Origin: Thermodesulfovibrionales bacterium
GTDB taxonomy: Bacteria; Nitrospirota; Thermodesulfovibrionia; Thermodesulfovibrionales; SM23-35
Direction of reading: 5' to 3'
Assembly: GCA_030019415.1 (NCBI GenBank)
Contig: JASEEX010000007.1
Location: 1-62,486, forward strand
Length of the DNA stretch: 62,486 bases
Positions within the stretch are counted from its first letter, which is position 1; every line of letters begins with the position of its first letter. Below, piece by piece: positions 38,264 to 60,332 of the stretch. The notes beneath the pieces were generated by a model, which saw nothing but the letters and a program-made list of their open reading frames with translations, did no database searches and was not told the DNA's origin. The translations under genes were made by a program, and so were the position numbers.

Positions 38264-38265
38264 CA

Positions 38266-41144: not shown

Positions 41145-41150
41145 ACAGGG

Positions 41151-41309
41151 GATTTACCCCGCACCAGCAGAAAGCTACGGGTGTAAACCTGTGGATGAAA
41201 GGTAAAAATATCCCGAGTGGTGCGGGATTTACCCCGCACCAGCAGAAAGCTACGGGTGTAAACCTGTGGATGAAAGGTAAAAATATCCCGAGTGGTGCGG
41301 GATTTACCC
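41151..41309 (+). repeat. 75-bp tandem repeat, 2.1 copies, containing the pseudopilin start codon and leader
   Basis: Units 41151-41225 and 41226-41300 read as identical, and the third copy stops after gatttaccc. Each unit begins TTTACCCCGCACC and ends GGTGCGG (internal inverted repeat). Confidence 0.9.
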
Positions 41310-41683
41310 TCGTCGAGATCCTTATTGTTATCAGCATCGTTGGAATTATGTTGTCTGTTGTCATGCCCGTTTCTTATTCCATGTATAAGACTTATCAAGA
41401 ATCGCTTGAAGCAGAGAAGGTACTGATCTTCCTCTCATCTTTAAAAAGAGAGTCTTTTCTTTATAGCAAGGAGAGCCTTGTAGATACCAAAGACGGTAAG
41501 CTGGTAGTGGACGGTAGTGAAAAAAGGGAGTTTAAGGATATATTTATCCATGCAGAAAGACCCATACTATTTTATAAAAACGGCACGACCTCTGGCGGCA
41601 AATTACGCTTAAACATGAAGAGTAATATATTTCTCATTGGTATTGATCCCCCCTTAGGAGAGATGAGACTAACAAGACAGTGA
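41270..41683 (+). CDS. GspH-like minor pseudopilin
   Basis: MKGKNIPSGAG/FTLVEILIV prepilin signature. The ATG at 41270 is preferred over the GTG at 41141. Confidence 0.65.
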   Translation: MKGKNIPSGAGFTLVEILIVISIVGIMLSVVMPVSYSMYKTYQESLEAEKVLIFLSSLKRESFLYSKESLVDTKDGKLVVDGSEKREFKDIFIHAERPILFYKNGTTSGGKLRLNMKSNIFLIGIDPPLGEMRLTRQ

Positions 41684-42144
41684 TGATCACGATAAAAAGA
41701 AAAATGTTTAACAGTCCATTGCTTAGAGAAAACAAAGGCTTTCTTGTCATAGAGATACTTATAGCAGGACTCATCCTGACAGCAAGCATTGCTGCAACCA
41801 TGTATCTCTTCAGGGTCGGGTTTCAGCATCTGGGGAGGGCAGATGTTTCCAATATCCTTTCATCCAAACTCTCTCAGTCAATAAATCTCATAAAAACCTT
41901 TGACCTCGAGAAAAAGAGCGGAATAGAGGATATCGGAGACGGTGTAACCCTTGCGTGGGAGGCAAGGCTCTTAAACAGTACAAGGCCAGTGATGTATACA
42001 GCTGAAGGAAGTATCCCATCTCCCCATGAGCTTTATTTGTACAGGGTGAGTTTCCAGTTAATATATAAGGATGCTAAAAGGGATTATGAGACCAATATCT
42101 TCAGCTATAAGAGGCTGGTATCCGCTTCAGAGATGCTTTTCTAA
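41680..42144 (+). CDS. GspI-like minor pseudopilin
   Basis: ...ENKG/FLVIEILIAGLIL prepilin-like N-terminus with Glu at +5. Confidence 0.55.
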   Translation: MMITIKRKMFNSPLLRENKGFLVIEILIAGLILTASIAATMYLFRVGFQHLGRADVSNILSSKLSQSINLIKTFDLEKKSGIEDIGDGVTLAWEARLLNSTRPVMYTAEGSIPSPHELYLYRVSFQLIYKDAKRDYETNIFSYKRLVSASEMLF

Positions 42145-42805
42145 TAAGGGTTATACCATCCTGGAGGTTCTTATAGCCATTGCTATATTCACTGCGATGG
42201 TCACTATTGCCTCAATGGCATTGAATCAAGGATTAGGACAATACCATAGACTGATGGAGAGGGGTATTAATTTTTGGGACAATGCAAAATACCTCTGGAT
42301 AAACAAAAGCCTCAATTCAGCAGCAGATTATTATGTATATTCCCGGGATAGCGGGTGGTTTCCATACTTTCGTGGGAATCAGGAGCTTATCTCTTATGTC
42401 TCATCATCACCACTCGCTACAGGTGAACCTGTTGTTGTGTGGATAAGAAACGAGCGCGGGGACGACGGGAACCGCTCCATTGTTTATTATGAACTGCCTG
42501 TTTACGCAAAAAATATGCAAGAAATAGAGAGACAATACCTTTTTGGAGACTTTAAGAAGGGTAACTCCGTAACGCTCCTTAAGGGTATAGGGGATGTCAG
42601 CATTAAATTCTATGGCTATGACCTGCTCGAAAGGCAGTGGTCATGGACAGGGGACTTTGATGGAAGTAAAAGAAAAGTCCTCCCACAAGCGATCAGGATT
42701 GATTATAAAGATATGGGCACAGGGGAGAGAAAAACAGTAATCCTCGGTGTAAATACAAACTCCTTGAATAAGATGATTTACAATGAGATATACCCCCCTG
42801 AATAA
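42086..42805 (+). CDS. GspJ-like minor pseudopilin
   Basis: ...SNKG/YTILEVLIAIAIF prepilin-like N-terminus. 42086 is the nearest in-frame ATG. Confidence 0.55.
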   Translation: MRPISSAIRGWYPLQRCFSNKGYTILEVLIAIAIFTAMVTIASMALNQGLGQYHRLMERGINFWDNAKYLWINKSLNSAADYYVYSRDSGWFPYFRGNQELISYVSSSPLATGEPVVVWIRNERGDDGNRSIVYYELPVYAKNMQEIERQYLFGDFKKGNSVTLLKGIGDVSIKFYGYDLLERQWSWTGDFDGSKRKVLPQAIRIDYKDMGTGERKTVILGVNTNSLNKMIYNEIYPPE

Positions 42806-43703
42806 AGAAAATGGCTCCGCAACACTCCTGACAATCTTCATATCAGCCATTATGATAACCATCGGAATCGGCTTTAACTGGCTTGTCAAGGAGCATCTCA
42901 AGGCGGCAGAAGGGCTCAGGGTAAAATCAGAGGCGATGTTAAGTGCAAAATCCACATTTGATACCCTTGTTTATCTTCTCCTTTCGGGTAAAAAGACACA
43001 GAAGGAATACCTATTCCAGAACGGCGAGGAACTTTTGGGTATCAGAAGTATTCCATTAAATGGCAATGAGGTTACACTAAAAGATGTGAAGATAAGCACC
43101 AGAGACAGTAATGGCATGCTGTCATTGAGCGCTCTGAATGAGTCAGCAATGAAGAGGCTGGTAGAATTGTTTTCAGGAGAAGATGCAACTGGTATAATAG
43201 AAAGTTATCTTGACTGGATTGATAGAGACAGGCTTGTCAGGCTCAATGGGGCGGAAGAATTTTACTATAACTCAAAGGGGCTTCCTTATGTCCCGAGAGA
43301 TTATTTTATCCAATATAAGGAGGAATTCACACTTGTAAAGGGGATGAACAGAGAATTGTATGAAAAGATAGAACCCTATATCACAATTCTTCCATCATTT
43401 GGTTTTAACCCGAATACAGCATCAGAGGAAGTCTTAATGGCATATCTTGATATAGACAGAGATGTAGTTAAATTCCTCAAGGATTACGTTGCCCAGAAGC
43501 CGATCTCATCAGACATGGAATTATTTTCCCTGGTGGGGAAGAGGATTGTTTATGCGGAGGGTATTTATTTTTATCCTTCCCCCTTTATGGAAATAACAAT
43601 AAAAGCTGGCATTCCTGAGACTGTCTATACCATCAATGCAGGTATTGATACCCGTCAGAACCTCACCTTTCCATACAGTGTGATGTACTGGAAGGAAGAA
43701 TGA
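42783..43703 (+). CDS. GspK-like minor pseudopilin
   Basis: Hydrophobic N-terminus without Glu at +5. NPNTASEEVL helix-hairpin-helix-like motif typical of GspK. Confidence 0.6.
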   Translation: MRYTPLNKENGSATLLTIFISAIMITIGIGFNWLVKEHLKAAEGLRVKSEAMLSAKSTFDTLVYLLLSGKKTQKEYLFQNGEELLGIRSIPLNGNEVTLKDVKISTRDSNGMLSLSALNESAMKRLVELFSGEDATGIIESYLDWIDRDRLVRLNGAEEFYYNSKGLPYVPRDYFIQYKEEFTLVKGMNRELYEKIEPYITILPSFGFNPNTASEEVLMAYLDIDRDVVKFLKDYVAQKPISSDMELFSLVGKRIVYAEGIYFYPSPFMEITIKAGIPETVYTINAGIDTRQNLTFPYSVMYWKEE

Positions 43704-43707
43704 AGAT

Positions 43708-44874
43708 ATGCTTGTATCCTACTGGCATAAGAATGGTATAGAAGCTTACAGGGTGAAGAACTCTGAATTGATTAGGATCGCCTCAGGCAATTTAGATACA
43801 CTCAAGCCTTTCACCGGATTCGGTAAAAAGGTCATGATTGTTGCAAGGGAGCTCCTCCTGTATACAAGAAAGAGATACCCCCCTACTACACGGGAAAACA
43901 TAGCCAAAGCTATTTCTATAGAAATCAGGGATCTTTTCCCACTCGAAAGCCCTGCCTACTTTTTCAGGGTATCAGAACAGACTGCTACCTATAGCCTTGC
44001 GGATATATGGGCATGGGATTGTTCTCAATACGAAGGGGTAAGAAAGGTCTTTCCGTTTACCCATGTGCTGCCTGAGGACATGGCATTTATCTCTGATGAG
44101 CCAGAGATAAGCATCTTTGAACACGATGGGTTGAAACACTTGGTCGCATCTAACAAAAATGGATTTATTGGTGGATTATCTCTCAGGACCCTCAGAGATG
44201 ATGCAATAGAGATGTTTTTAAGGAGTCTTGGAAGACACTCCCTTGAGATCAAGAGGATAAGGTTGTATTGTGCCCTGGAAAATTTTTCTTCAGAAAATTT
44301 TTCGGGGACCCTTCCTGTGGTGAATGAGCAGCAAAAGGATTACCCGCTATGTCTGAAAAACATAAACAGATTAGTGCTAAAGGACTTCAGATATGCACGT
44401 GAAATTCCTTTTACCCCGAGCATAGAATTATTACTGAGGTTAATAATCTATCTCATGATTATCTACTCAATCTCTCTTTTTATTACCATCGAAAATTATG
44501 ACAGTGCTATCCTGGAGACATCAAAGAGGCTTGATAGTCTGACAAAGGAACTAGCGGGTGTAGGACAGATAAAAGGCAGCGACGAGCATTCTGATACAAT
44601 AAACGAACTTATTGAAAAACGGAAATCAAGGATAGGCCCCCTTACCGTAATGGATGCACTTGCGGAATTCATTCCGGAGGGCACATCTATAACGAGGATG
44701 ATATTGAACGAAAACAACCTTGAACTTTCTCTATCTTCAAAGGATCCCCTCAATGTTATAAGGAACCTTTCAGGTGCGAGGTGCGTCAAAACTGTGAAAC
44801 TCAAAGGTGCACCCTATAAGGCACAGGATTCATATAACTTTCTCCTGACACTGGAGCTGGTACCATGCGGCTGA
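43708..44874 (+). CDS. GspL-like assembly protein (cytoplasmic domain, one TM, periplasmic domain)
   Basis: 388 aa with a single central TM (LLLRLIIYLMIIYSISLFITI). Call based on position in the operon. Confidence 0.5.
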   Translation: MLVSYWHKNGIEAYRVKNSELIRIASGNLDTLKPFTGFGKKVMIVARELLLYTRKRYPPTTRENIAKAISIEIRDLFPLESPAYFFRVSEQTATYSLADIWAWDCSQYEGVRKVFPFTHVLPEDMAFISDEPEISIFEHDGLKHLVASNKNGFIGGLSLRTLRDDAIEMFLRSLGRHSLEIKRIRLYCALENFSSENFSGTLPVVNEQQKDYPLCLKNINRLVLKDFRYAREIPFTPSIELLLRLIIYLMIIYSISLFITIENYDSAILETSKRLDSLTKELAGVGQIKGSDEHSDTINELIEKRKSRIGPLTVMDALAEFIPEGTSITRMILNENNLELSLSSKDPLNVIRNLSGARCVKTVKLKGAPYKAQDSYNFLLTLELVPCG

Positions 44875-45416
44875 TGGGTCAACTTAAAAGGGAAAGATTG
44901 AAAACAGCGGGGATTTATCTGGTTATCATCCTATTTGTACTAAAATTTGTCCTGATCCCTTTAAGCCACTCTGCAAAGGACAAAAAAACCCTTTTGAATG
45001 AATATACTGAAACATACCGGACAAAGGCCTTAATAAAGGAAAGACAGCTCCATACAGATAAGACGAAAGATGAGTCTATCTCTGAGGAGAGAAAGAGACT
45101 CCTTGATCCTTTGTATACAAAGGATTCTGCTGCCTCTGTAATACAGTCAGAAATCCTCATGTCTGCTATAAAAAGTGCTGAAAAGAATGAAATGGGCATT
45201 CTTAACTTTGAACTCCCTGATACCATCTCAGGAAAGAACCTGAGCGAGATATCCGTCCTTGTGAGATTAAAAGGCATGCCTAAAGGATTGATAGGTCTCT
45301 TGAAGGAGATAGGTAATATGAAGAGACCTGTGGACATCAAGGGTCTTCAGATAGATAAAAGTAGGGACGAATTCGTCTATACCCTTACACTGACCACATA
45401 CAGGATCGAAAGATGA
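44865..45416 (+). CDS. GspM/PilO-like bitopic protein
   Basis: N-terminal TM then about 140 aa periplasmic. Call based on operon position. Confidence 0.45.
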   Translation: MRLMGQLKRERLKTAGIYLVIILFVLKFVLIPLSHSAKDKKTLLNEYTETYRTKALIKERQLHTDKTKDESISEERKRLLDPLYTKDSAASVIQSEILMSAIKSAEKNEMGILNFELPDTISGKNLSEISVLVRLKGMPKGLIGLLKEIGNMKRPVDIKGLQIDKSRDEFVYTLTLTTYRIER

Positions 45417-45892
45417 TGAAAAAATATCTGATGGACATTTTATGCATAGCTATATTTGGATTGTCTATTCCCCTGCTGGTGGTAGAGAAACCAGAGATAA
45501 GCTACAGTACACTAATTAGCAACGCCAGGACGGCAGAACCTGAAAAAAAGAAGGATATGACAGAAACTATTACACGGGTTGAAAAACAGAGGGTCAGGCA
45601 ATATAAGCATATAGAAGAACGCAACATCTTTTCTCCGGATGGTGTTTACAGGATTGTTAAAGGCGAAGCCCCTCCTCCTGAAAATCCATACCGCTTTATT
45701 GGTGTGCTTAGAGGAAAGGATAAAAGGGCTGTATTTATGGATTACACAGGGGAGATTATTACATTAAAACCTGGGGAAAAGCTTGGGGACGGATCTGTTA
45801 TAAGGGATATAGATATCCTTTCTGTAAAATTAAAGAAAGGGAAGAAGGAAACAGAGCTCAGGATATTCAATCTTGACAGGGAGAAGAAGTAA
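45413..45892 (+). CDS. GspC/PilP-like secretin-interacting protein
   Basis: N-terminal TM, RNIFSP motif and a C-terminal beta-rich domain. It lies directly upstream of the secretin. Confidence 0.45.
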   Translation: MMKKYLMDILCIAIFGLSIPLLVVEKPEISYSTLISNARTAEPEKKKDMTETITRVEKQRVRQYKHIEERNIFSPDGVYRIVKGEAPPPENPYRFIGVLRGKDKRAVFMDYTGEIITLKPGEKLGDGSVIRDIDILSVKLKKGKKETELRIFNLDREKK

Positions 45893-45896
45893 GGAC

Positions 45897-47954
45897 ATGA
45901 AGAGACTCTTATATTTTCTCTGCCTGGTGCTGCCTTTGATAGGCTTATTATCAGGATGCGCCACTGTCCCGAAATCCAGGACCCTTCCGAAAAGCGAGTC
46001 TGCTGGAGCATCAGTTGTAAGCAGACCCCCTGAAGGCCAGCCCATAACTATAGGGCAATCCACAGGGCAACCACCTTCAAGGACAGAGGAGTTGACCCTT
46101 CCCACCTATGAAAGACCACCAGAAAAGCCTCTTCCTAAGGCAGAGCCAATAGACCCAAAGCGGGTCGTCCATGCAGAAGTCCCTGTTATGCTCAATGTCG
46201 AAGACATGCCCCTTTCAGACTTCATAATCTATGCCCTTGGGGAGACCCTGAAGATAACATTCGTCATAGACGAGCCTGTCAAGAACATGAAAACCCCCAT
46301 AACCTTCAGGATGACTCAGGAGATGCCTGCAGAGAGGGTATTAGAGAACGTGATCGGTCTTCTCGAAAAGAACGACCTAATCGTAGAGGAGAAAGCAGGG
46401 GCATTATTCATCACCAAGTCAAGGCTTCAACCAAAAAGGCCTATGGATATTAGGATAGGCAGGGATGTCCCTGAAAGCCCTGCCGAGGTGCTACAGGTAG
46501 TTCCCCTCAGGTATATAAGGCCTTCTGATATCGACTCTATTATCAAGGAGGTTTACAAAACAGGCATAAATCTAAGAATATATCCAAAGGGAAATGCCCT
46601 CCTCCTTTCAGGGCCCGCAACGGATGTAAAAGAGATAGTGGAGTTCATAGGGTTATTTGATGTCCCCTATATCCAGAACAAAAGTCTCTCCATGCTTAAA
46701 CTAACCTACTGGCAGACCGATGAGTTCATAAACCAGCTCTCCACCATACTCGAAGGGCTTGGCTTTACCGTAGCAAGATCACCCAGAGATCCAGGGATTC
46801 TCTTTATTCCCATAAAGTTTTTAAACAACCTGATTGTAGTAGCACCTGACGAAGAGTCCCTGAAATATGTCCTTGATTGGTACCGGAAACTTGACACTGC
46901 TGAGTCAGCAGGTACTGAGGAGAAGGCATTCACTTACACCCCGAAGTATTCAAGGGCATCAGACCTTGTTGATGCATTAAGGAATCTTTACATGGTTGCA
47001 CCCCCTCCTGCAGCTCCAGTACAGCCCCCGACCGCACAAAGACCGTCACCACAACAGCCCACATTAACCATCAGTGGCCTTAAGATATCAGCCGATGACA
47101 AAAGGAATCTCATACTCATCCTCACTACACCTGCTCAGTACAGAAGCATCCTCAGTTATCTTGAAAGGCTCGATGTTCCACCACGGCAGGTGCTCATTGA
47201 GGCAACAATAGCTGAGCTGACCCTTAAGGAAGACCTCAAGTATGGTCTTGAGTGGTATATAAAAAACAAGATGGTGGAAGGGAAATATACACTTCAGACC
47301 TTAGGACAGCTCGGACTCACCACTGCTACAGGTCTCACATACCAATTTATCTCTGATACAGAGAAGTTTAAGGCCCTTATAAATGCCTTTGCAAAGGAAG
47401 ACAGGATAAATATCCTTTCAAGTCCAAGACTCGTGGTGCTTGATAACGAAGAGGCAACGATACAGATAGGAACAGAGGTTCCTATCGTAACAGGTGAGGT
47501 CTCTGCCCCTGATATAACTACTGGGAAGCCGAGCATCATGAGAAACATCCAGTACAGAACTACAGGTGTAATATTAAGGGTAAAACCCACAATAAATACA
47601 GAAGGTCTCCTCACATTGAATATATCTCAAGAGGTGAGTGAGGCACAAACAAATATAGCATCCGGGATTGATTCACCAATGATACTTTTAAGGAGGATAA
47701 ACACGATGGTTGTAGCAGCAACTGCTCAGTCCATCATCCTTGGGGGCATCATGTCTGAGACTACAAGCGAAACGGAAAATAAGGTTCCGCTTTTAGGTGA
47801 TATACCGGTACTCGGGCACCTCTTTAAGACTACATCCAGGGGGAAGCAAAAGACAGAACTGATTATTCTTCTCACCCCCTCAATTCTTACTAATATAGAT
47901 GACGCAGTAAGGGTCACAAATGAGTTTAAAGAAGGTTTGAAATGGCTAAAATGA
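45897..47954 (+). CDS. gspD: secretin (lipoprotein form)
   Basis: Lipobox LLSGC, Pro-rich linkers, N-domains, and a C-terminal secretin domain (VPLLGDIPVLGHLF). Confidence 0.85.
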   Translation: MKRLLYFLCLVLPLIGLLSGCATVPKSRTLPKSESAGASVVSRPPEGQPITIGQSTGQPPSRTEELTLPTYERPPEKPLPKAEPIDPKRVVHAEVPVMLNVEDMPLSDFIIYALGETLKITFVIDEPVKNMKTPITFRMTQEMPAERVLENVIGLLEKNDLIVEEKAGALFITKSRLQPKRPMDIRIGRDVPESPAEVLQVVPLRYIRPSDIDSIIKEVYKTGINLRIYPKGNALLLSGPATDVKEIVEFIGLFDVPYIQNKSLSMLKLTYWQTDEFINQLSTILEGLGFTVARSPRDPGILFIPIKFLNNLIVVAPDEESLKYVLDWYRKLDTAESAGTEEKAFTYTPKYSRASDLVDALRNLYMVAPPPAAPVQPPTAQRPSPQQPTLTISGLKISADDKRNLILILTTPAQYRSILSYLERLDVPPRQVLIEATIAELTLKEDLKYGLEWYIKNKMVEGKYTLQTLGQLGLTTATGLTYQFISDTEKFKALINAFAKEDRINILSSPRLVVLDNEEATIQIGTEVPIVTGEVSAPDITTGKPSIMRNIQYRTTGVILRVKPTINTEGLLTLNISQEVSEAQTNIASGIDSPMILLRRINTMVVAATAQSIILGGIMSETTSETENKVPLLGDIPVLGHLFKTTSRGKQKTELIILLTPSILTNIDDAVRVTNEFKEGLKWLK

Positions 47955-49352: not shown

Positions 49353-50813
49353 ATGAGTAGGTATTTTAAGGTTTTAGTGTTAGCCATCTTGGCAGTTGGC
49401 CTGATGGCAGGATCAGCATATGGTCTCAAAAATATTCAGCGCCAAGGAAATGTTGATACCACGACAATAGCCAAAGAGATTATCGACCCATCTGTAGGAT
49501 ACACACATGTTGGCGCAGGAGCTATTGAATTTGATATTAGCAGTGGCATTGCAAATGGCAAAAAGATAGTCTTTACCCTGACCAATGGGACCCTTACGAA
49601 TATCAACAGCCTGAAAATGTGTACTTCGGCTCATGCAGCAGTTACCGCAAATCTCACTTCTACCACAACGGACAAGAGAAGGGCAGAGTTTACAGCCACT
49701 GGTGCCATCGCAGCAGGTCCAGACTACTACCTCACAGATGTGGCTTGCGGAGCAGCCCAGGGGTTATCCATAGGAATCGATGCGAATGCCTCTGCTGTCA
49801 CTGTTACAATTGCAACCGACGATACGAATGAGGCAACTCCCCAATTATCAAATACCACTTTCTACAAGGCACAACAGCAGTTCGGATTAAATGATTGTGG
49901 CAGTATAATTGATACAATTGATGTGGAGGCAGATCTCCTTAAATTTCTCGCTGCTACCACAGCATCAGGGAGTGATACCGTTTCTCATTGGGAAGGTGGT
50001 AATGGACTAGCTACTGGCTTTAAAGCTGCGTCCTCAGGGCCTACTCTTGCTGCCGTCGCTTACCCGAATGTGAATGTCAACTTCAAAGTATCAGGCAATT
50101 TGGTGGGTTTAAGCAGTGTGATACTCGTCGACACCAAAGGAACACCAGGAACAGGTGATGATGTTGACATTGCTACGCTTTCGATCAATGCAGACAAAAC
50201 AGAAGCCACAGGGTCAATGAAGTTAATGGACCTGACTGCAAAGACTGTTGCTATCAAGTTAACAGTCGATGGATCAACAACACTTGAAGACAGAAAGCTC
50301 AGCATTGGAGCAACACTATCAACTGCTGACGATGTAAAGGTTTCAACAACACTGATTGACTCTACCGCTACGACCAACACTCTAATTTCGGGGGCTGTTT
50401 ATATTGTAGCAGGCAAGGAACGGGTCATATGGGACCTCAACGGCCTCCAGTTTGTTGCTCCTTATGTAAGGCAGGACAGCATTGTAACTTCAGTTATAAG
50501 GGCTGAAAATGCATCCAACAAGGACTCTAAGATATGGTGGTTTGTAAATAATGGTGGTATATGGAAACTGGTTAAAACCGATAACTTTACCAATGGCAGC
50601 GTTCTTCTTAAGACAGGTCAGGCGCTGATTGATGATGCTGCAGCAGCTGGTGTTACACTTGATGCGACAAAGGGTTTCTCGGTATGGGGCGTTGTAAAAA
50701 CTACTGACGAGGGGAACCGTAAAAACATAACCGTGTATGGAAGCCAGCAGTTATTAGGTGGTCCCTTCAGGCCCCTTCCGGTACAAGTAAAGTGGGCTGA
50801 CTGGCACGAATAA
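49353..50813 (+). CDS. secreted Thr/Ala/Gly/Asp-rich cell-surface protein (S-layer or T2SS-substrate candidate)
   Basis: Signal peptide ending AGSAYG, AAAGGAGG RBS and a strong terminator. 486 aa with few Cys. I recognise no family. Confidence 0.5.
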   Translation: MSRYFKVLVLAILAVGLMAGSAYGLKNIQRQGNVDTTTIAKEIIDPSVGYTHVGAGAIEFDISSGIANGKKIVFTLTNGTLTNINSLKMCTSAHAAVTANLTSTTTDKRRAEFTATGAIAAGPDYYLTDVACGAAQGLSIGIDANASAVTVTIATDDTNEATPQLSNTTFYKAQQQFGLNDCGSIIDTIDVEADLLKFLAATTASGSDTVSHWEGGNGLATGFKAASSGPTLAAVAYPNVNVNFKVSGNLVGLSSVILVDTKGTPGTGDDVDIATLSINADKTEATGSMKLMDLTAKTVAIKLTVDGSTTLEDRKLSIGATLSTADDVKVSTTLIDSTATTNTLISGAVYIVAGKERVIWDLNGLQFVAPYVRQDSIVTSVIRAENASNKDSKIWWFVNNGGIWKLVKTDNFTNGSVLLKTGQALIDDAAAAGVTLDATKGFSVWGVVKTTDEGNRKNITVYGSQQLLGGPFRPLPVQVKWADWHE

Positions 50814-50833
50814 AAATTAGTTTTCTTTTAAAA

Positions 50834-50865
50834 GGCGGGCGACCTAGTCGCCCGCCTTTTTTTTT
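50834..50865 (+). terminator. strong intrinsic terminator
   Basis: ggcgggcgac-cta-gtcgcccgcc perfect 10-bp GC stem followed by T9. Confidence 0.9.
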
Positions 50866-50944: not shown

Positions 50945-53900
50945 ATGAAAATTCTGATAATCACTGAAAATTTCAGAACAGGCGGTCTTGAGACCCAGAT
51001 AATGGGATTTTGTAGATATCTCAAAAACTCAGGACATGAGGTTTATCTCATCTCAGGTATTGGGAGCAGGACTTTTCCCCTCAAGGAGATTATTGATAAA
51101 AATATCCTTGAGGTGGATATGAGACCTGATTTACCCACAAAAGAGGCGATTGATTCAATAAACAGGACAGTCTCCTTTATCAAGGATATAGACCCTGATG
51201 TTCTTCATCTCCATCCATTTACAAGCATCATCTATGGAGGCATTGGAGCGGCAGTCCTTCAAAAACCCTATGTTATTACACTTCATGGGCCGTTGAGTCT
51301 CACCTATGGTTACAACCCCTCGTATCGTTTATATATCGACCTGATACTTAAAGATGCCTGGCGTGTGTTTTGTGTTTCAGAGGAGGTTGCCCAAAGGGTA
51401 AAGGACATTGTCCCTGATTGCAATTTAAGTATACTCCCCAATGGAGTTGATACAGAAAGATTTATACCGGTCCAGAGAGACCCTGATGGTCCAGTGGCCT
51501 TAGTTGCCAGGATCGATTCTGATAAGATTCCAGGAATAAAATCCTTTTTAACAGAGTGGTCAAAATTGCCACGTAGTCTTAGGCAGACTATTCATATCTT
51601 TGGAGAAGGCAATTCCGTTGAAGAACTTAAAAACTGGGTGAAGGCTAACTTAAACGGAGGAACATGGGTAACATTCATGGGGCATGAAGATAATCTCCAT
51701 GAACGACTTAAGAGAGGTTATTCTTTGGTAGCTGGGATGGGGAGGGTTGTGCTTGAGGCCGCAGCCATGAATCTGCCAGTGATTCTTGTTGGGTACAGTA
51801 GACCTAATGGCCCGGTTAGTGTGGATAATTGTAATCAACTCTTTTACAGGAATTTCTCCGGCCGATATACCTCTGTAATTAATAATGTAGAAAAACTTAA
51901 AGAGGAGCTATCAGAACTTGAAACTTCACCGGAACGGTTTTTACTCCGTTCGTGGGTTGTAGAAAATGCCGATGAGAAAAAGATTCATGCCGGATACCTA
52001 CAAGAGGTTAAAAATGCAAAACAGGTGAATTACAGATGGCGAGAGGCCTTTTTGTCATCTATCGGAGAAGCAGAGGATATATCATTATTTGGGGATAAAG
52101 TGTTTCATTGCCTCCTTAATAATCTCCCGCAAGATCAGGTAAATTCCAATTGGGTAAATCTTTTTCTCAGTGACAAGATAAACTGGGCAATTACAGAAAA
52201 GAATTCATTAGGTAGCCAGCTAAACCAGACAATTGCAGAAAAGGATAGCCTCCAACATCAATTTAACCAGATGTTAGTAGAGAAGGAGGCATTAGGTAGC
52301 CAGCTAAACCAGACAATTGCAGAAAAGGATAGCCTGTGGAATCAGCTAAACAACATATATACAAGTGATTTCTGGAAGGCGGCGAGTTGGTATTATAGGG
52401 TGAGAGACAAAAATCCAATTTTAAGGTTTTTCTATCTTAATGCAAAGAAATTTAAATCGACGATTAAGAATAAAAACTATCTTTTTTACCTTTCAAAATT
52501 TCAGAATTATTCGAAGCAATATGGCATAAGAAAAGCTTTGAAGATGACCTTCTGCAAGCTTACAAATAGTTCTTTTGTTACAGAATCGGAACGAGGCACA
52601 TTCAAGGAAAAAGACCGCAATACAGATAGGGTTTTTACGGATATAAAAAGACCTAAAGCAAAAACAGAACTAAAGAATATAATTGAAAGTCATAAACATG
52701 TTAAGGGAGTTATATTGTATAAATCTTTTCTTGACTGGAATTTTCCTCTTTTCCAGAGACCTCACCAGTTGAGCATTGCCTTTGCAAAAAATGGTTTTTT
52801 GGTCTTCTACTATTCCCCAAATTGGGAGTATGATAATTATACTGGTTTCAGTAAGATCATGGATAATCTTTTAGTATTTCATGAGGATCTTGATATATTT
52901 AATTCTATCGACAATTATATAGTCTTTCTAAATTGGAATGCCTTTGATGACCTTGCTCCATTTAAGAAACCGAAGATGATTATTTATGACTATCTTGATC
53001 ATATAGAATTACTGGATGTTTATAATGAAAAGATCTTACAGAATCATATTGAGACAATAAAAAAAGCTGATATTGTTACGGTTACGGCAGAAGACCTCTA
53101 TGATGAGGTGAAACAGTATAGGGATAAAGTCATTTTATGTCCTAACGCTGCAGATGTCGAGCACTTTAGAAATAGTAAAAAAGAAATCCCGCATGATATC
53201 AAAAGATTGGTGGAATCAAAAAAACCTATTATTGGTTATTATGGCGCCCTCGCCCGTTGGTTTGACTACGAGCTTCTTAAGTACTGTGCATCCCGTAAAC
53301 CTAATTATAACTTTCTCCTCATTGGTTATGATTACGATGGAAGTTATAAAAAGTCGGGTATTCATTTATATGAAAACGTAATCCGTATTGATCCAGTTCA
53401 TTATAGTGTTTTACCACAATACCTTCAATATTTTGATGTGGCAACGATATCTTTTGTTGTAGATGATATTACTTCTGCGACATCACCGATTAAACTCTTT
53501 GAATATGCAGCCCTACGGAAGCCGATTGTAACTACTGATTTGCCTGAGTGCAGGAAGTACAGAGCTGTTTTGATTTCGCATTCTTTCGAAGAATTCCTTA
53601 ATAATATTGACAGGGCGCTTAAACTTAAAGATGACCCTGATTATCTCAAGGAGCTAGATAAGTTAGCAGAAGATAATACATGGGATTCGAGAGTTAAGCT
53701 GATTATAGATGGAATCGAAAAGAAAGGACTGGATAGGCCATGGGAAACAGTACAATGCAGACAGAGTTCATATGATATCATCAACTTTCCTATTATGCCA
53801 TGGGATTCGAGGATACAAAGGTCACAACAGTTGATAAGACAATTTGCCAAAAAAGGGTCAAGGATTTTTCGCATAAATACAAATTTTTCCTCAAACACTT

Positions 53901-55618
53901 ATAGTCTGGTGAAGATCGATGCTAATGTATTCCACTTGACTTTAGATAAAGACATCAAATTGAATATCTTTACTGATGTGATCGACGATGTGAATCTTCT
54001 AAGGATGATTCATTCCCTTGACGTGTTTTTTAGAAATGAGTTTATTCCAGCCCCTCCAATTTGTATTGTTGAACTTCCCTTCTGGTCTTCTATCGCAGAA
54101 TATCTTAAAAAGAGATATAACTGCAAAATCATTTATGACTGTATGGACGAGCACTCAGGATTTTCTACCAATTCAGAAAAAATGTTGGAATTTGAAAAAG
54201 AATTGGCAAAACTCTCAGACGCTATCATTGTAAGTTCAAAAAAGCTTTTTGATAAGATGAAGGAGCTCAATAACCAAACCATTGTAATAAACAATGCAAC
54301 CGATTTTGATCATTTCCACCGGCTAAAGGAAAATGACCTCCTAAAAGACTACAAAAAACCGATCGTCGGCTACTTTGGCGCAATTTCTGACTGGTTCGAT
54401 ATAGAGACTATTGAGTATGCAGCAAAAAAGAAAGAGGATTGGACATTTATTCTTATTGGTAGTACATTCGGGGCTGATATAAGCCGAGCGACAAAACTCT
54501 CAAATATCCATTTCCTTGGTGAAAAGCCTTATTCCGAACTCTCTCAATATCTTTACTGGTTTGATGTTTGCCTGATACCAATGAAACTCAACAAACTCAC
54601 AGAAGCAACGAACCCTGTGAAGTTTTTTGAGTATATCAGTTCAGGCAAACCGGTAGTTTCTGCAAAACTTTTGGAGCTTGAACCATACGGAGACATACTC
54701 TATTTTTATAAAACAAAGGAAGATTTCGTTTTACAGACAGAAAAAGCTCTTGAAGAGAAAGACCTAAATTTGATAGAGAAAAGAATTGATATCGCCAGAC
54801 AGAACACATGGGAAAAACGTTTTGTGGAATTTGACCAATTGATAAGGAATATTTTTCCTAAGGTTAGCATTATTTTAATTACTTACAATTGTTTAGATTT
54901 CACAAAGTTATGTATTAACAGCATCTATACTAACTCTAAATACCCAAATTTCGAAATAATAATTGTAGACAATTGCTCAGGGGATGGCACAGTGGAATAC
55001 CTTAAGCATTTATTAAGCCAGAAGGACAACGTTAAGGTCATTTTCAACGAAAAAAATTATGGATTTGCATATGCTAACAACCAAGGCATAAAACTGGTAG
55101 AAGGTGAATATGTCATATTTCTTAATAACGACACTGTTGTAAGCCCAGGATGGATATATAGGCTGTTAAGACATTTAGAAAGTAAAAAGGTTGGTATGGT
55201 TGGTCCTGTCACAAACAGTAGCGGAAACAAAGCACAAATTACTGTTTCTTACAATGTTAAGACATTGGAAGGTTTCGATAAATTCACTGAAAAATATCTA
55301 AGAGACCATCCAGAGTCTGAGTTTTTTGAAATCAAGATGCTTGGCCTGTATTGTGTTGCTATGAGAAAAGGGGTGCTTGACGAAGTTGGGGTGCTTGATG
55401 AGCGTTTCAGTATAGGGAGCTTTGAAGATGACGACTTTGCAAACAGGGTAAAATTGAGAGGTTATAGGATTATTTGCGCCCGCGATATATTTATTCATCA
55501 TTTTGGAAGTGCAACTTTTGGCAAACTCGCTACACAGGAATTACAGAGTATCTACAATAGAAATAAACTTAAATTTGAAGAAAAATGGGGTTCTCGCTGG
55601 GAACCGGATCTGGATTAA
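50945..55618 (+). CDS. 1557-aa multidomain glycosyltransferase: GT4-like, coiled coil, two GT-B (group 1-like) modules, GT2
   Basis: N-terminal MKILIITENFRTGGLE GT4 start. Coiled coil at about aa 411-472. Paralogous modules with PIIGYYGALARWFD...KLFEY and PIVGYFGAISDWFD...KFFEY. C-terminal GT2 (VSIILITYN, DNCS.DGT, NND, FEDDDF). Confidence 0.8.
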   Translation: MKILIITENFRTGGLETQIMGFCRYLKNSGHEVYLISGIGSRTFPLKEIIDKNILEVDMRPDLPTKEAIDSINRTVSFIKDIDPDVLHLHPFTSIIYGGIGAAVLQKPYVITLHGPLSLTYGYNPSYRLYIDLILKDAWRVFCVSEEVAQRVKDIVPDCNLSILPNGVDTERFIPVQRDPDGPVALVARIDSDKIPGIKSFLTEWSKLPRSLRQTIHIFGEGNSVEELKNWVKANLNGGTWVTFMGHEDNLHERLKRGYSLVAGMGRVVLEAAAMNLPVILVGYSRPNGPVSVDNCNQLFYRNFSGRYTSVINNVEKLKEELSELETSPERFLLRSWVVENADEKKIHAGYLQEVKNAKQVNYRWREAFLSSIGEAEDISLFGDKVFHCLLNNLPQDQVNSNWVNLFLSDKINWAITEKNSLGSQLNQTIAEKDSLQHQFNQMLVEKEALGSQLNQTIAEKDSLWNQLNNIYTSDFWKAASWYYRVRDKNPILRFFYLNAKKFKSTIKNKNYLFYLSKFQNYSKQYGIRKALKMTFCKLTNSSFVTESERGTFKEKDRNTDRVFTDIKRPKAKTELKNIIESHKHVKGVILYKSFLDWNFPLFQRPHQLSIAFAKNGFLVFYYSPNWEYDNYTGFSKIMDNLLVFHEDLDIFNSIDNYIVFLNWNAFDDLAPFKKPKMIIYDYLDHIELLDVYNEKILQNHIETIKKADIVTVTAEDLYDEVKQYRDKVILCPNAADVEHFRNSKKEIPHDIKRLVESKKPIIGYYGALARWFDYELLKYCASRKPNYNFLLIGYDYDGSYKKSGIHLYENVIRIDPVHYSVLPQYLQYFDVATISFVVDDITSATSPIKLFEYAALRKPIVTTDLPECRKYRAVLISHSFEEFLNNIDRALKLKDDPDYLKELDKLAEDNTWDSRVKLIIDGIEKKGLDRPWETVQCRQSSYDIINFPIMPWDSRIQRSQQLIRQFAKKGSRIFRINTNFSSNTYSLVKIDANVFHLTLDKDIKLNIFTDVIDDVNLLRMIHSLDVFFRNEFIPAPPICIVELPFWSSIAEYLKKRYNCKIIYDCMDEHSGFSTNSEKMLEFEKELAKLSDAIIVSSKKLFDKMKELNNQTIVINNATDFDHFHRLKENDLLKDYKKPIVGYFGAISDWFDIETIEYAAKKKEDWTFILIGSTFGADISRATKLSNIHFLGEKPYSELSQYLYWFDVCLIPMKLNKLTEATNPVKFFEYISSGKPVVSAKLLELEPYGDILYFYKTKEDFVLQTEKALEEKDLNLIEKRIDIARQNTWEKRFVEFDQLIRNIFPKVSIILITYNCLDFTKLCINSIYTNSKYPNFEIIIVDNCSGDGTVEYLKHLLSQKDNVKVIFNEKNYGFAYANNQGIKLVEGEYVIFLNNDTVVSPGWIYRLLRHLESKKVGMVGPVTNSSGNKAQITVSYNVKTLEGFDKFTEKYLRDHPESEFFEIKMLGLYCVAMRKGVLDEVGVLDERFSIGSFEDDDFANRVKLRGYRIICARDIFIHHFGSATFGKLATQELQSIYNRNKLKFEEKWGSRWEPDLD
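52206..52335 (+). repeat. 46-bp perfect direct repeat with 84-bp period inside the coiled-coil segment of the giant GT
   Basis: cattaggtagccagctaaaccagacaattgcagaaaaggatagcct at 52206-52251 and 52290-52335. It encodes LGSQLNQTIAEKDSL twice, 28 aa apart. Confidence 0.9.
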
Positions 55619-55624
55619 CTTGAA

Positions 55625-55778
55625 ATGAATAAACTTTTTTCATTTTCGGTACTCGTCCTGAGGCCATAAAGATGGCTCCACTGATATTAAAGGCAAGTGC
55701 TAACGCCTCATTTAATGTCGGGCTCTGTGCTACAGGACATCACGATGAGATGCTCCAACAGGTTTTGGATTTCTCAGG
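55625..55778 (+). pseudogene. frameshifted remnant of the wecB 5' end
   Basis: atgaataaacttttttcattttcggtactcgtcctgaggccat... is colinear with 56758-56910 of intact wecB. One missing nt near the start gives an early TAA. Confidence 0.85.
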
Positions 55779-56754: not shown

Positions 56755-57867
56755 ATGATGAAACTTCTCTTCATTTTCGGTACACGTCCAGAGGCCATTA
56801 AACTGGCTCCTGTGATACTAAAAGCACAAAAAGATGAATCCTTTGATGTCAGGATCTGTGTAACCGGTCAGCACAATGAGATGCTCCACCAGGTTTTAGA
56901 TTTCTTCAGGATAGAACCAGATTATGACCTGAATATTATGCAGCCTGACCAGTCTCTCTACGATGTTACAGCTAATACGATTAAATTCCTTGAAAATGTC
57001 ATTGCTTCAGAAAATCCATCGCTGGTTTTAGTGCAGGGTGACACTACCACTGCCTTTATAGGTGCGCTGGCCTCTTTTTACCAGAAGGTTCCTGTAGCAC
57101 ATATCGAAGCAGGCCTCAGGAGCCACAACAAGTATTCGCCATTCCCGGAAGAGATAAACAGGGTTTTAGTTGGACACCTCGCAGATTATCATTTTGCTCC
57201 AACTTTAAGGACAAAAGAAAATCTGATCAGAGAAGGTATAAACGAGGACAGGATTTATATTGTTGGTAATACAGTTATTGATGCCCTATTTTTGACCCTT
57301 GAGATTATAAAAAATCAAGAGGACAGGTTTTTGGAATATTTTGATTGGTTAAATATCGAAAAACCTATAATACTTGTGACATGCCATAGACGAGAGAGCT
57401 TCGGTGAGCCTTTCAAAAATATCTGTCTGGCTCTTAGGGATATTGCTGAAGAAAATAATGTTGAAATTGTTTATCCAGTACATCTAAACCCAAATGTGAG
57501 AGAACCTGTTTTTGAAATACTCAACGGGCTTAAAAATATACATCTTATTGAGCCATTGAGTTATCCATACCTCGTATGGCTTATGGAAAAATCTTCTCTG
57601 ATACTTACAGATTCTGGAGGGATACAGGAGGAGGCACCGAGCCTCGGAAAACCAGTTCTTGTAATGAGAGAGGTTACTGAAAGGGTAGAAGGAATTGAGG
57701 CAGGAACTTGTAAATTAGTTGGAACAGAAAAGGAAAAGATAGTGGATGAAACTATTCGCCTTTTAACTGATCTTGATGAATATGAGAGAATGGCAAAATC
57801 TGTAAATCCTTATGGTGATGGAAAATCCTCTAAAAAAATATTAAAGATTCTTTCTGATATGATCTAA
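56755..57867 (+). CDS. wecB: UDP-N-acetylglucosamine 2-epimerase (non-hydrolysing)
   Basis: FGTRPEAIKLAPV, VQGDTTT, HIEAGLRS and DSGGIQEEAPSLGKPVLVMR motifs. Confidence 0.9.
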   Translation: MMKLLFIFGTRPEAIKLAPVILKAQKDESFDVRICVTGQHNEMLHQVLDFFRIEPDYDLNIMQPDQSLYDVTANTIKFLENVIASENPSLVLVQGDTTTAFIGALASFYQKVPVAHIEAGLRSHNKYSPFPEEINRVLVGHLADYHFAPTLRTKENLIREGINEDRIYIVGNTVIDALFLTLEIIKNQEDRFLEYFDWLNIEKPIILVTCHRRESFGEPFKNICLALRDIAEENNVEIVYPVHLNPNVREPVFEILNGLKNIHLIEPLSYPYLVWLMEKSSLILTDSGGIQEEAPSLGKPVLVMREVTERVEGIEAGTCKLVGTEKEKIVDETIRLLTDLDEYERMAKSVNPYGDGKSSKKILKILSDMI

Positions 57868-59139
57868 ATGAAAATTCTGCTTATCGCCTATTCCTTTCCA
57901 CCATTTCAAGACGGTCAATCCCTTAGGTGGTATTATTTATCGAATGCACTAGCCGAATTGGGGGTACAAATAGATGTAATTACCATCAAGCATCCCTTAG
58001 AAGATAAAATCACATGGAATTTCCATAAAAATATAGAGATATTTAGAATCTATCCAGGACCCATTGAATTTTTTGCACTAAGGGCAAAGAAAAATATGGG
58101 AGTTGGTGACGGGGGAAATAAAGAGCTTAGAAAATCTTTAAAATTTAAGATGATGAAATCCTCATACTGGGGAATAAGAAATTTTGTTGGAAATCTTTTG
58201 CCAGGGGACATAAGGACAGAGTGGTTTCCTTTTACCATAAGATTTATTAAGGAAAATATTGACATAAGAAAGTATGATTATTTAATAACATCCCACGAGC
58301 CTTGGGTGGATAGTTTACTGGGTTTATATTTAAAAAAAAGAGATGCCAAAATAAAGTGGATAGCTGATTTCGGGGATCCATATATTGCTCCTTATACATC
58401 GAAACATAAATTGTGGTTTGAAAATTACTTTGAAAAATTGATATATAAAAATGCATCCGTTTTGATATTTACAAATGGCAAAGTAATAGAGCATCTGTCA
58501 AATAAATATCCTTTTTTAAAGAATAAAAAATTATTGGTGATTGAACAGGGCTTTAGCTACCGCTTAAGCGCTGAAATAAATGATGTACAATATAAGAATA
58601 AAATTTTCACCTTAATCTACACAGGAACATTTTACAGGAATTTTAGAGATCCTTCAAATCTGATCAAGGCCCTTTCTATGATCGATTTTGAATACAAGTT
58701 CTGTCTTGCTGGAAGAAATGAGAAATTTATAAAAGATTTCAGTATATTAGGAGATAATTTTGAATTTTTAGGAGTTGTAGATCACTTCAATATACTGAAG
58801 TTACAAAAAGCAAGCGATGTCTTAATTCATCTTGCAAATAAGAACACATCCATACAGATTCCCGGCAAATTTTATGAATATCTTGGAGCTTTAAAGCCTA
58901 TTTTAAGCATTCATTTTGATTGTGAAGATCCCACAAGGAAGCTTGTCAAAGAATTAAGATGCGGAATATCTTGTGAAGATAACCCAATCGAAATAAAGAA
59001 CGCGATAGAAAGCATTTATAAGAATTGGAAGAGAAATGAAAATAATTGTAAGGCAAGCCTTGAGGGTATATGCGATTTTTCATGGGAAAAGAAGGCAAAG
59101 ATAATTTATAAAAATCTTAAAGCAACCGTTGCTGTCTAA
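57868..59139 (+). CDS. glycosyltransferase (GT-B fold, divergent)
   Basis: MKILLIAYSFPP start and a C-terminal PGKFYEYLGALKPIL (E-x7-like) region. Very AT-rich. Confidence 0.6.
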   Translation: MKILLIAYSFPPFQDGQSLRWYYLSNALAELGVQIDVITIKHPLEDKITWNFHKNIEIFRIYPGPIEFFALRAKKNMGVGDGGNKELRKSLKFKMMKSSYWGIRNFVGNLLPGDIRTEWFPFTIRFIKENIDIRKYDYLITSHEPWVDSLLGLYLKKRDAKIKWIADFGDPYIAPYTSKHKLWFENYFEKLIYKNASVLIFTNGKVIEHLSNKYPFLKNKKLLVIEQGFSYRLSAEINDVQYKNKIFTLIYTGTFYRNFRDPSNLIKALSMIDFEYKFCLAGRNEKFIKDFSILGDNFEFLGVVDHFNILKLQKASDVLIHLANKNTSIQIPGKFYEYLGALKPILSIHFDCEDPTRKLVKELRCGISCEDNPIEIKNAIESIYKNWKRNENNCKASLEGICDFSWEKKAKIIYKNLKATVAV

Positions 59140-59261: not shown

Positions 59262-60332
59262 ATGATCGCTATAAATTCACGTTTTTTAACTCAAAAAGTC
59301 TCCGGCGTTCAACGATATGCTATAGAGATATCGAAACAACTCAAAAAATTGTATCCTGAAACAAGATTTGCTGCGCCTAAAAATATCATTCATAGAGAAC
59401 TGGCCGAGCGTTTAGAAGCTGTAGAGTATGGAACACTAACGGGGCATCTGTGGGAACAAATAGAGCTTCCAAAATATTTAAAGGAAAATAACAACCCATT
59501 GCTTATAAATTTGGCGAATACTGCCCCTTTGTCTTATAACAATCAGATAGTCACGATTTGTGACCTTTCTTTTTTGAGAAATCCAAAATGGTTCTCAAAG
59601 AAATTTTATTTTTACTATAAATTTCTGATACCACGAATAGCCAAAAACTCTTTAAAAATTATTACGATCAGTGAATTCTCAAAAAATGAGATAATAGAGT
59701 TACTTGATGCCCGTGAAAGTAAGATTAAAGTCATTCATTGCGGAGGTGCTGAAGAATTTGCCAATCTTATAGACAACGATTCAGTAATTGATTATAGAAC
59801 CAAAAAATACATATTATCAGTTTCCACATTAGGTCCAAGAAAAAATCTTGAAAGTCTAATTTTGGCCTTTCGAAAATTAAAGGTACCTGATATCCAATTG
59901 ATAATCGTCGGATCAAAAAATAACAATTTTGCAAACAATAACTTAAAAAATCTGATAAATGCTGACAAAAATATTATTTTTACTGGATATATTTCAGATA
60001 TAGAGTTAGTGTCTCTATATAGAAATGCCATGTTATTTGTTTACCCCTCTCTTTACGAAGGATTTGGTCTTCCGCCTTTGGAGGCCATGGGTTGCGGAGT
60101 GCCTGTTGTAGTTTCCAACGTTGCAAGCCTGCCTGAGATATGTGGTAATGCAGCGTATTATGTTGATCCATATAATGTGGAAAGTATAGCTGAAGGGATA
60201 TATAAAGTGTTGACTGATGAACCGCTTCGGCAAAGCCTGATCAAAAAAGGACTTGAGAGAGTTAAGCTTTTTAGCTGGGAAAAGTCGGCAAAAGAGCATA
60301 TTAAAGTTTTTGAAGAGGTTTTGAATAGTTGA
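59262..60332 (+). CDS. family 4 (group 1) glycosyltransferase
   Basis: YPSLYEGFGLPPLEAMGCGVPVVVSN E-x7-E motif. Confidence 0.85.
   Translation: MIAINSRFLTQKVSGVQRYAIEISKQLKKLYPETRFAAPKNIIHRELAERLEAVEYGTLTGHLWEQIELPKYLKENNNPLLINLANTAPLSYNNQIVTICDLSFLRNPKWFSKKFYFYYKFLIPRIAKNSLKIITISEFSKNEIIELLDARESKIKVIHCGGAEEFANLIDNDSVIDYRTKKYILSVSTLGPRKNLESLILAFRKLKVPDIQLIIVGSKNNNFANNNLKNLINADKNIIFTGYISDIELVSLYRNAMLFVYPSLYEGFGLPPLEAMGCGVPVVVSNVASLPEICGNAAYYVDPYNVESIAEGIYKVLTDEPLRQSLIKKGLERVKLFSWEKSAKEHIKVFEEVLNS

Follow-up and report, generated by a model that had tools for sequence, protein, structure and literature searches.

The stretch of DNA analyzed here (62,486 nucleotides, referred to as the window) comes from a Thermodesulfovibrionales bacterium of the phylum Nitrospirota (contig JASEEX010000007.1) and encodes a single large polypeptide for glycan assembly, in which a GT4 domain, a 73-residue helix, a basic amphipathic segment, two GT-B modules and a GT2 module follow one another (Table 1). 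A sequence-only reading had seen four glycosyltransferase (GT) domains and a helical segment on this 1557-residue polypeptide, which Pfam, NCBIfam and AlphaFold2 (AF2) confirm. The protein probably unites a cap enzyme, a helical spacer and a polymerase for a surface glycan exported by an ATP-binding cassette (ABC) transporter, a design known from WbbB and built here of unrelated modules. The exporter genes wzm and wzt and the gene for an initiating phosphotransferase were found by family scan, as that reading had it. They are not next to the large GT gene as it had stated: the three genes (32375–35304) lie 15.6 kb upstream, with toxin–antitoxin genes, a type II secretion system (T2SS) and two other genes between.

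Table 1. Genes and features of the window (residue numbers, aa, are those of the 1557-residue protein)
Feature	Position	Strand	Remarks
Initiating polyprenyl-phosphate sugar-phosphate transferase	32375..33790	+	Bac_transf + CoA_binding_3
Wzm	33797..34564	+	ABC-2 permease
Wzt	34540..35304	+	254 aa; nucleotide-binding domain only
Two toxin–antitoxin genes	35416-37549		MNT/HEPN type
Complete T2SS	37865..47954	+	GspG, E, F, pseudopilins, K, ..., secretin D
126-aa open reading frame	48479-48859
486-aa secreted protein	49353..50813	+	Signal peptide; no known family; candidate S-layer-like surface protein
Intrinsic terminator-like hairpin	50830..50860	+	Strong; 14-bp stem, T run; after 486-aa gene
Large GT, whole open reading frame	50945..55618	+	ATG start; intact; 1557 aa; multi-module glycan assembly enzyme
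N-terminal GT4 domain (GT4N)	50945..52054	+	aa 1-370; retaining, GT-B fold; proposed chain-capping enzyme; Pfam, AF2, Foldseek
Conserved linker (SIGEAEDISLFGDKVFHCLLNNLPQ)	52055..52141	+	aa 371-399; upstream marker of spacer
73-residue helix	52142..52360	+	aa 400-472; ~4 14-aa repeats; proposed coiled-coil spacer
46-bp perfect repeat, copy 1	52206..52251	+
46-bp perfect repeat, copy 2	52290..52335	+	Period 84 bp = 28 aa = 4 heptads; in frame
IYxSDFWKxAxxYYRxRD motif and basic, aromatic amphipathic helices	52361..52567	+	aa 473-541; proposed membrane-proximal anchor/docking region
GT-B module 1	52700..53689	+	aa 586-915; TuaH-like; Pfam, NCBIfam, AF2, Foldseek
GT-B module 2	53720..54838	+	aa 926-1298; paralogue of module 1; Pfam, NCBIfam
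GT2 (GT-A) module	54845..55618	+	aa 1301-1557; Pfam Glycos_transf_2, PDB sequence matches
UDP-GlcNAc 2-epimerase	56755..57867	+	Makes UDP-ManNAc; kept beside the large GT in relatives
GT4a	57868..59139	+	GT4-type glycosyltransferase; syntenic in L001, L002, L145
GT4b	59262..60332	+	GT4 glycosyltransferase

Glycosyltransferase Domains of the 1557-Residue Protein

The N-terminal domain (GT4N) matches the Pfam families Glyco_transf_4 (residues 13–172, 96.5 bits) and Glycos_transf_1 (residues 184–283, 56.8 bits). An AF2 model of residues 1–585, based on a 16-sequence alignment, has a mean predicted local distance difference test score (pLDDT) of 83.5, with values mostly >90 in the GT-B domain. Foldseek places this domain with the retaining GT4 enzymes MshA, BshA, PglA, PimB′ and WbnH (E = 1e-13 to 1e-15 for MshA, BshA and PglA). 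Residues G13 G14 E16, H88/H90/P91, H114-G115-P116, R189/D191/K194, G264-M265-R267...E271 and N303-R307 are invariant in 16 family members, and the classical EX7E motif has another residue in place of its first Glu (AGMGRVVLE), by reading of the sequence. The domains, the fold, the R/K phosphate-binding motif and the C-terminal Glu motif are those of the GT4-like retaining GT-B enzymes of CAZy. Loss of the catalytic residues of the GT4 domain, which would have spoken against a capping role, is not found, since the active-site motifs are invariant in the family alignment. The domain is thus intact as judged from its residues, and chain capping is the role proposed for it.

The remaining modules have relatives of other kinds. 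Pfam finds Glyco_trans_1_4 three times in the protein and Glycos_transf_2 at residues 1308–1481 (E = 4e-33, 115 bits), and NCBIfam finds two stretches that resemble TuaH and a GT2 that resembles TuaG, each far under its equivalog cut-off. The central GT-B modules score 177.6 bits against a TuaH equivalog cut-off of 550 and are, on these scores, related to TuaH and not equivalogs. The two modules are paralogous (30% identity, E = 1e-43), and no similarity between either of them and the N-terminal GT4 domain was detectable. The GT2 module, with the Asp-rich motifs IIVDNCSGDGT, NNDT and EDDD, is the only part through which a sequence search of the PDB finds matches (chondroitin synthase, heparosan synthase, SpsA). 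An alignment of the whole C-terminal part (A2) set single-module homologues on the wrong paralogue and was left out of structure prediction; residues 465–930 were therefore modeled instead (alignment A3). The resulting model (mean pLDDT 81.9) contains a helical segment followed by a GT-B domain, module 1, whose pLDDT is mostly 81–98 with two lower blocks. Its Foldseek matches are generic GT4/GT5/GT20 folds, and WbbB is absent among its PDB neighbors.

The Repeat-Built Helix and Its Duplication

For the segment that follows GT4N, AF2 yields one uninterrupted 73-residue helix (residues 400–472, block-mean pLDDT 67–92), in answer to the structure prediction that the sequence-only reading had called for. 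At about 0.15 nm per residue, the helix would span ~11 nm. The perfect 46-bp direct repeat, in frame and with an 84-bp period, that had been noticed in the DNA of this segment is real. The true protein repeat unit, according to Tandem Repeats Finder and the translation, is 14 residues (QLNQTIAEKDxLxN) in ~4 units, and the 84-bp event duplicated a pair of these units, with both the 14-residue and the heptad register kept. The segment had also been described as heptad-rich; the 14-residue repeats and the helix bear this out, but the heptad pattern is non-canonical, in that hydrophobic residues at repeat positions 2, 6 and 12 (partly 5 and 13) form an a/d/e stripe. Spectral power in the helix is strong at periods 7 and 14/3.

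The longest in-register exact repeat is 46 bp in this gene and 15–24 bp in three related genes, and the 28-residue duplication therefore looks recent, as had been supposed; it would have added ~4 nm to the helix. It is very improbable that the repeat is instead an artefact of assembly or, as the outcome of neutral slippage, has no functional effect. The sequence is that of one contig from an uncultured organism, and no reads covering the repeat were located in public sequencing runs. Nevertheless, the flanks of the two 78-nt copies are not identical (82% overall), which speaks against simple duplication during assembly; the repeat also stays in frame with both registers preserved, and the same kind of length change is found in relatives.

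Heptad Ladder and N-Terminal Slot in Relatives

The relatives of the protein (numbered here with a P, and related loci with an L) have in common two flanking motifs, LFGDKV and IYxSDFW, which bracket the helix. In 11 of 12 relatives, the distance between them takes one of the values 69, 76, 83, 90, 97, 104, 111 and 118 residues, with 90 in the window protein; the lone exception is P0012, at 82. Each of these 11 distances leaves a remainder of 6 on division by 7, and the heptad counts 9 to 16 are all represented, odd and even. Because odd and even counts both occur, the variation is not just a change in the copy number of the 14-residue unit, and because the distances share one remainder, the heptad phase between the flanks must be constrained, as expected for a supercoiled bundle. 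The comparison of coil repeat number among relatives that had been proposed thus gives variation in whole heptads, and this ladder is, at the level of sequence, the strongest argument for a coiled coil. Subtracting the recent duplicate from the window protein leaves a bracket of 62 residues (8 heptads), which is below every relative seen. P0006 carries ~9–10 repeat units.

The domain ahead of the helix also varies. P0004 has the same GT-B/GT-B/GT2 trio (55–62% identity), a helix of 1–2 units and, at residues 13–306, a polysaccharide pyruvyltransferase (PS_pyruv_trans). P0030 consists of a pyruvyltransferase, the helix and a GT-B module, and P0036 of a methyltransferase, the helix, the motif and GT modules, whereas P0008, P0009 and P0011 have a GT4 domain plus a methyltransferase ahead of the helix. 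The N-terminal slot is thus modular as far as predicted domains tell, with pyruvyl- or methyltransferases replacing GT4 in some relatives. Chain termination by pyruvate and by methyl or phosphomethyl groups is well established (PMC10629545, PMC11231755).

Downstream of the helix, AF2 predicts four short helices (residues 475–541) and then disorder. Residues 486–530 are basic, with +4 to +6 net charges in 18 residues, and their hydrophobic moment is as high as 0.55; the IYxSDFWKxAxxYYRxRD motif is kept in relatives. On these predictions, residues 473–541 would fit a membrane-surface anchor at the proximal end of the spacer. A radical SAM/SPASM enzyme encoded at L143:7089-8621 begins with ~4 QLNQ-type 14-residue repeats and the IYASDFWKVASSYYKVRD motif (IYASDFW). 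It is a separate protein, with no distal enzyme on its QLNQ helix/IYASDFW module, which suggests that helix and motif also act as a docking module used in common with tailoring enzymes. When only the helix and motif segment served as the query, no homologues were found.

The GT4N Family and ABC Transporters

An exhaustive profile-free search with residues 1–540 retrieved 143 cluster representatives at E < 1e-30. In these, the GT4N domain almost always starts at residue 1, and in most it precedes a helical, coil-like stretch whose length varies widely. A scan of contigs with the single N-terminal sequence found nothing, but its profile version, applied to one genome per species, succeeded and found 58 GT4N loci in many phyla, including Bacillota, Chloroflexota, Pseudomonadota, Myxococcota and Bacteroidota. 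ORFs (open reading frames) were mapped in 34 of the 58 loci, and 32 were assessable for upstream genes.

Genetic linkage of the enzyme to wzm–wzt is found in the window itself, in the close relative L002 and across the family: the pair is directly upstream of the GT4N gene in 23 of the 32 assessable loci, and elsewhere within 10 kb in three more. The UDP-GlcNAc 2-epimerase gene is another frequent neighbor. Wzt is 396–534 residues long in 18–19 loci and 239–267 residues in 6; the carbohydrate-binding extension Wzt_C is present in all eight long Wzt tested and in neither of the two short ones, giving a cap-reading module in 18–19 of 25 family loci. The terminator model predicts a link to transporters of the cap-reading kind (PMC11231755), and the linkage of GT4N to such transporters would, by this analogy, fit that model. 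The window locus and L002 belong to the minority without Wzt_C. In L002 (ERZ25039602 contig_17993), homologues of wzm and wzt lie close downstream of the large GT gene, with one small methyltransferase gene between it and wzm. Many genes of this contig (wzm, wzt, epimerase, GT4a) are in fragments, which fits assembly frameshift errors better than true pseudogenes.

Cap Enzyme and Spacer, or Scaffold

In the mechanism that we propose, the phosphotransferase encoded at 32375 would prime undecaprenyl phosphate, and GT4a and GT4b, with UDP-ManNAc from the epimerase, would add an adaptor. The three C-terminal GT modules, held at the membrane by the amphipathic segment (residues 473–541), would extend the chain, and the helix would hold the N-terminal GT4 ~11 nm off the membrane, probably as an oligomeric coiled coil built around an a/d/e core. 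Only chains that reach that distance would obtain the terminal residue, growth would then stop, and Wzm/Wzt would export the capped chain. Because the 84-bp duplication added four heptads, the product should have lengthened.

An extended coiled-coil protein with a terminator at its distal end is the marker of the capping strategy (PMC11231755). WbbB (Klebsiella pneumoniae O12/Raoultella terrigena; Aeromonas salmonicida) has an N-terminal terminating GT, a coiled-coil spacer and C-terminal polymerizing GTs on one polypeptide, the same layout as proposed here, and likewise acts in a wzm/wzt pathway (PMC11231755). The cap candidate of the window protein is an ordinary retaining GT4, whereas that of WbbB is a GT99 β-Kdo transferase; the window polymerase part has three modules (two TuaH-like GT-B and a GT2), and the window Wzt has no carbohydrate-binding module, two further differences from WbbB. 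The large GT would work like WbbB, which we hold to be probable for the design, and appears from its modules not to be a homologue of WbbB.

In WbdD/WbdA (Escherichia coli O9a, K. pneumoniae O3/O5) and ORF6 of K. pneumoniae O7, an extended coil lies between a terminator at its distal end and an amphipathic region near the membrane by which the polymerase is held or recruited, and in WbdD-type systems coil length sets chain length (PMC11231755, PMC3482155). Relatives P0036 and P0008/P0009/P0011 resemble WbdD in their distal methyltransferase. In contrast, the candidate terminator of the window protein is a glycosyltransferase and not a kinase/methyltransferase, its polymerase is fused and not recruited, and its helix is short (73 residues) and built of 14-residue QLNQTIAEKD repeats. 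The pyruvyltransferase WbbZ (K. pneumoniae O1b), whose capping shortens the polymer in vitro, works with a transporter that has no carbohydrate-binding module (PMC10629545, PMC11231755). P0004 and P0030 share the enzyme type with WbbZ, a pyruvyltransferase standing where the window protein has GT4; unlike them, WbbZ is a separate protein for which the available text describes no helical-spacer fusion, and the window protein itself has no pyruvyltransferase.

The proposal that polymerizing GTs and a capping GT4 are spaced by the coil is thus favored by the layout, the heptad ladder, the slot swaps and the wzm–wzt linkage in relatives; the exporter is not adjacent and its Wzt, as had been noted, is without a carbohydrate-binding extension. 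Several further points weigh against it. Wzt_C is absent from the window Wzt, and tblastn finds none elsewhere in the window, while all characterized terminator systems have a Wzt with a cap-reading module (PMC11231755). No ligase or oligosaccharyltransferase was found in the window. Wzx, Wzy, Wzz and WaaL families are absent from all ORFs scanned there, the first three as the sequence-only reading had stated. The PDB sequence search and Foldseek give no sequence similarity or specific fold similarity to WbbB or WbdD. With regard to the spacer, the hydrophobic stripe departs from the canonical a/d positions, the 3.5-residue periodicity of residues 411–472 is modest (71 of 2000 shuffles reach it), being clearer in P0003, P0006 and P0012, and a crude a/d heptad scan did not flag the segment; this score gives false positives inside GT domains and serves for coarse trends only. 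The helix was modeled as a monomer, and an oligomeric coiled coil is a proposal. P0006 and P0015 also have a GT-B module distal to the helix, and P0005 has a methyltransferase proximal to it, so that the distal position is not always that of a cap. Finally, the functions of all family members are predicted.

Several of these points would also suit a helix that serves solely as an oligomerization or docking scaffold, with all four GTs building the adaptor and repeat unit and with length set by coupling of polymerization to export, as in Klebsiella O2a. The Klebsiella O1/O2 transporter has no carbohydrate-binding module, and chain length there depends on the transporter-to-synthase stoichiometry (PMC11231755); the short window Wzt without Wzt_C would match that transporter. 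The shared helix and motif of the L143 radical SAM/SPASM enzyme, with no enzyme at the distal end, would fit a multi-enzyme bundle and keep this alternative alive, as does the presence, in P0006 and P0015, of GT-B modules both distal and proximal to the helix. It leaves unexplained, however, the strict whole-heptad ladder over 9–16 heptads, the replacement of GT4 by classical capping enzymes and the cap-reading Wzt of most family loci, and we consider it unlikely, if the most serious competitor of the capping design.

A coiled-coil ruler that sets glycan chain length has been shown experimentally in only a few enterobacterial examples. The family described here offers a natural series of putative rulers, with 9–16 heptads between fixed flanks and a fresh four-heptad duplication, so that the ruler model could be tested without engineering. 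It also points to a widespread, unstudied GT4-type terminator beside cap-reading ABC transporters in many phyla, as predicted from gene content.

The Secreted 486-Residue Protein and Its Proposed Anchoring

The gene immediately upstream of the large GT encodes a secreted protein of 486 residues that is rich in Thr, Ser and Ala. It matches no Pfam family and has no relative in the PDB, and it belongs to a small family of ten proteins, every one of them hypothetical. In the region 48978–50860, a promoter-like site (10/12 matches) lies ~350 nt upstream of the start of this gene. Together with the terminator-like hairpin, this site would suit a strongly expressed single-gene transcript, as for surface layer (S-layer) genes.

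Homologues of this protein (29–56% identity) adjoin the GT4N gene, on its upstream side, in L143/L144, L145, L149 and L150/L151, and in L146/L147 one is encoded a few genes upstream of GT4N, with a radical SAM gene and an insertion sequence (IS) element between. In L149 and L151, a T2SS secretin (45–56% identity) is directly upstream of the homologue, as in the window. The possibility that the T2SS block is a chance insertion that split an ancestral operon of the phosphotransferase gene, wzm, wzt and GT genes was considered and rejected: the secretin/486-residue protein/GT order is kept in both loci, and the block is therefore part of a conserved unit. The L149 contig (GCA_038884095.1, JAVZKV010000042.1) is labeled Candidatus Hadarchaeum, an archaeon, yet it encodes a bacterial T2SS secretin, the homologue of the 486-residue protein and a GT4N-type GT; it is probably mis-binned.

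The O-antigen cluster of A. salmonicida (the wbsalmo locus) contains wzm/wzt, the Sps T2SS, the S-layer gene vapA, WbbB (1122 residues), WecB and further GTs (PMC4483657); WbbB thus stands there beside WecB, a dedicated T2SS and an S-layer gene, and similar neighbors are found in the window. Common to the two loci are wzm/wzt, a dedicated T2SS, a secreted surface protein of ~50 kDa (a candidate one in the window), a large multi-GT enzyme with a coil (a putative one in the window), a UDP-GlcNAc 2-epimerase and further GTs. The components in the window differ in that they appear not to be orthologous, with the 486-residue protein lacking detectable similarity to any solved structure, although no comparison aimed at VapA itself was made, and in the position of the T2SS, which follows wzt instead of lying between wzm and wzt; the phylum, Nitrospirota, is also different. 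The A. salmonicida O-antigen contains ManNAc, and the A-layer is tethered by lipopolysaccharide (LPS) that runs as a homogeneous band (PMC4483657). An O-antigen of homogeneous chain length is found in all S-layer-bearing Aeromonas strains (PMC3658858), and the Caulobacter S-layer also binds O-antigen, diderm S-layers being typically anchored through LPS (PMC6978808).

Since the synteny mirrors the Aeromonas A-layer/O-antigen locus, a fixed-length glycan that tethers the S-layer-like protein is plausible. By this analogy, the glycan would plausibly serve the co-encoded, T2SS-secreted 486-residue protein, most likely as its anchor. The sequence-only reading had offered that the glycan could decorate the adjacent surface protein; the surface protein and T2SS are indeed conserved neighbors, but non-covalent anchoring, as for Aeromonas VapA and Caulobacter RsaA, appears at least as likely as covalent decoration.

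Covalent attachment would leave the action of the enzyme unchanged and would link the glycan to the 486-residue protein, as in the Geobacillus S-layer glycoprotein pathway (WsaP, Wzm/Wzt, WsaE), and not to an LPS O-antigen anchor. The conserved synteny of protein and enzyme, an initiating enzyme of the Bac_transf (WbaP/WsaP) type and not of the WecA type, and the Thr/Ser/Ala-rich composition of the protein are all compatible with it, and a review of Aeromonas allows either option (PMC3658858). We nevertheless judge it decidedly unlikely: neither the window nor the related contigs yielded an oligosaccharyltransferase of the Wzy_C/PglL type, diderm S-layers are typically LPS-anchored (PMC6978808), and the closest locus-level analogue, that of A. 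salmonicida, tethers VapA by LPS (PMC4483657).

With anchoring as the preferred role of the glycan, a wider picture can be drawn, tentatively and with more doubt than confidence. Nitrospirota and relatives might share a three-part module composed of a dedicated T2SS, a ~480-residue S-layer-like protein without known relatives and a glycan sized by a repeat-built helical ruler. GT4N might found a widespread, uncharacterized class of sugar-adding terminators, possibly with a ManNAc-type donor, given the partnership with the 2-epimerase; the helix and motif might dock separate tailoring enzymes such as the L143 radical SAM protein, and heptad-by-heptad variation might tune glycan length to the surface layer. 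A reason why exact length would matter is suggested by the conserved linkage of the enzyme with a T2SS and a novel secreted protein, namely that a surface layer would be held at a fixed distance; the Aeromonas/Caulobacter picture would thereby reach into an environmental phylum that branches deeply. The system gains in interest from its natural ladder of heptads and from the conserved link between T2SS, surface protein and glycan genes.

Other Features of the Window

In the loci L001 and L142, the epimerase gene follows closely after the large GT gene. In the window, the gap between the two (55619–56754) contains a duplicated 5′ fragment of the epimerase gene (55622–55783, 77% identical to 56752–56915), a small ORF for an MNT-type nucleotidyltransferase (56015–56350) and a putative HEPN-like remnant; a toxin–antitoxin cassette seems to have been inserted at this junction. 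At least four toxin–antitoxin genes or pairs of the MNT/HEPN (HepT) type are spread over the glycan/T2SS locus (35416–36297, 37082–37549, 56015–56350 and 60429–61278).

The G+C content of the window is 41.5%, with fractions of 0.35–0.40 in the glycan genes (32375–35304 and 50945–60332) and 0.42–0.435 in the T2SS block and the rest. Lower G+C is usual for surface-polysaccharide clusters. A UvrA-like protein of the window shares 86% identity with a protein of a Nitrospirota metagenome-assembled genome (MAG) and 70–74% with those of Thermodesulfovibrionales and Nitrospiraceae MAGs, in line with a Nitrospirota host. An 801-residue ORF on the reverse strand (13763–16168) matches no Pfam family at E ≤ 0.01, and a DUF3368 (PIN-like) gene is located at 61825–62316. 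An intergenic palindromic element (GTCATTCCCGCGCAGGCGGGAATCCAG...) that has the look of a repetitive extragenic palindromic (REP) sequence or a miniature inverted-repeat transposable element (MITE) occurs twice, at 56578–56653 and 48229–48316.

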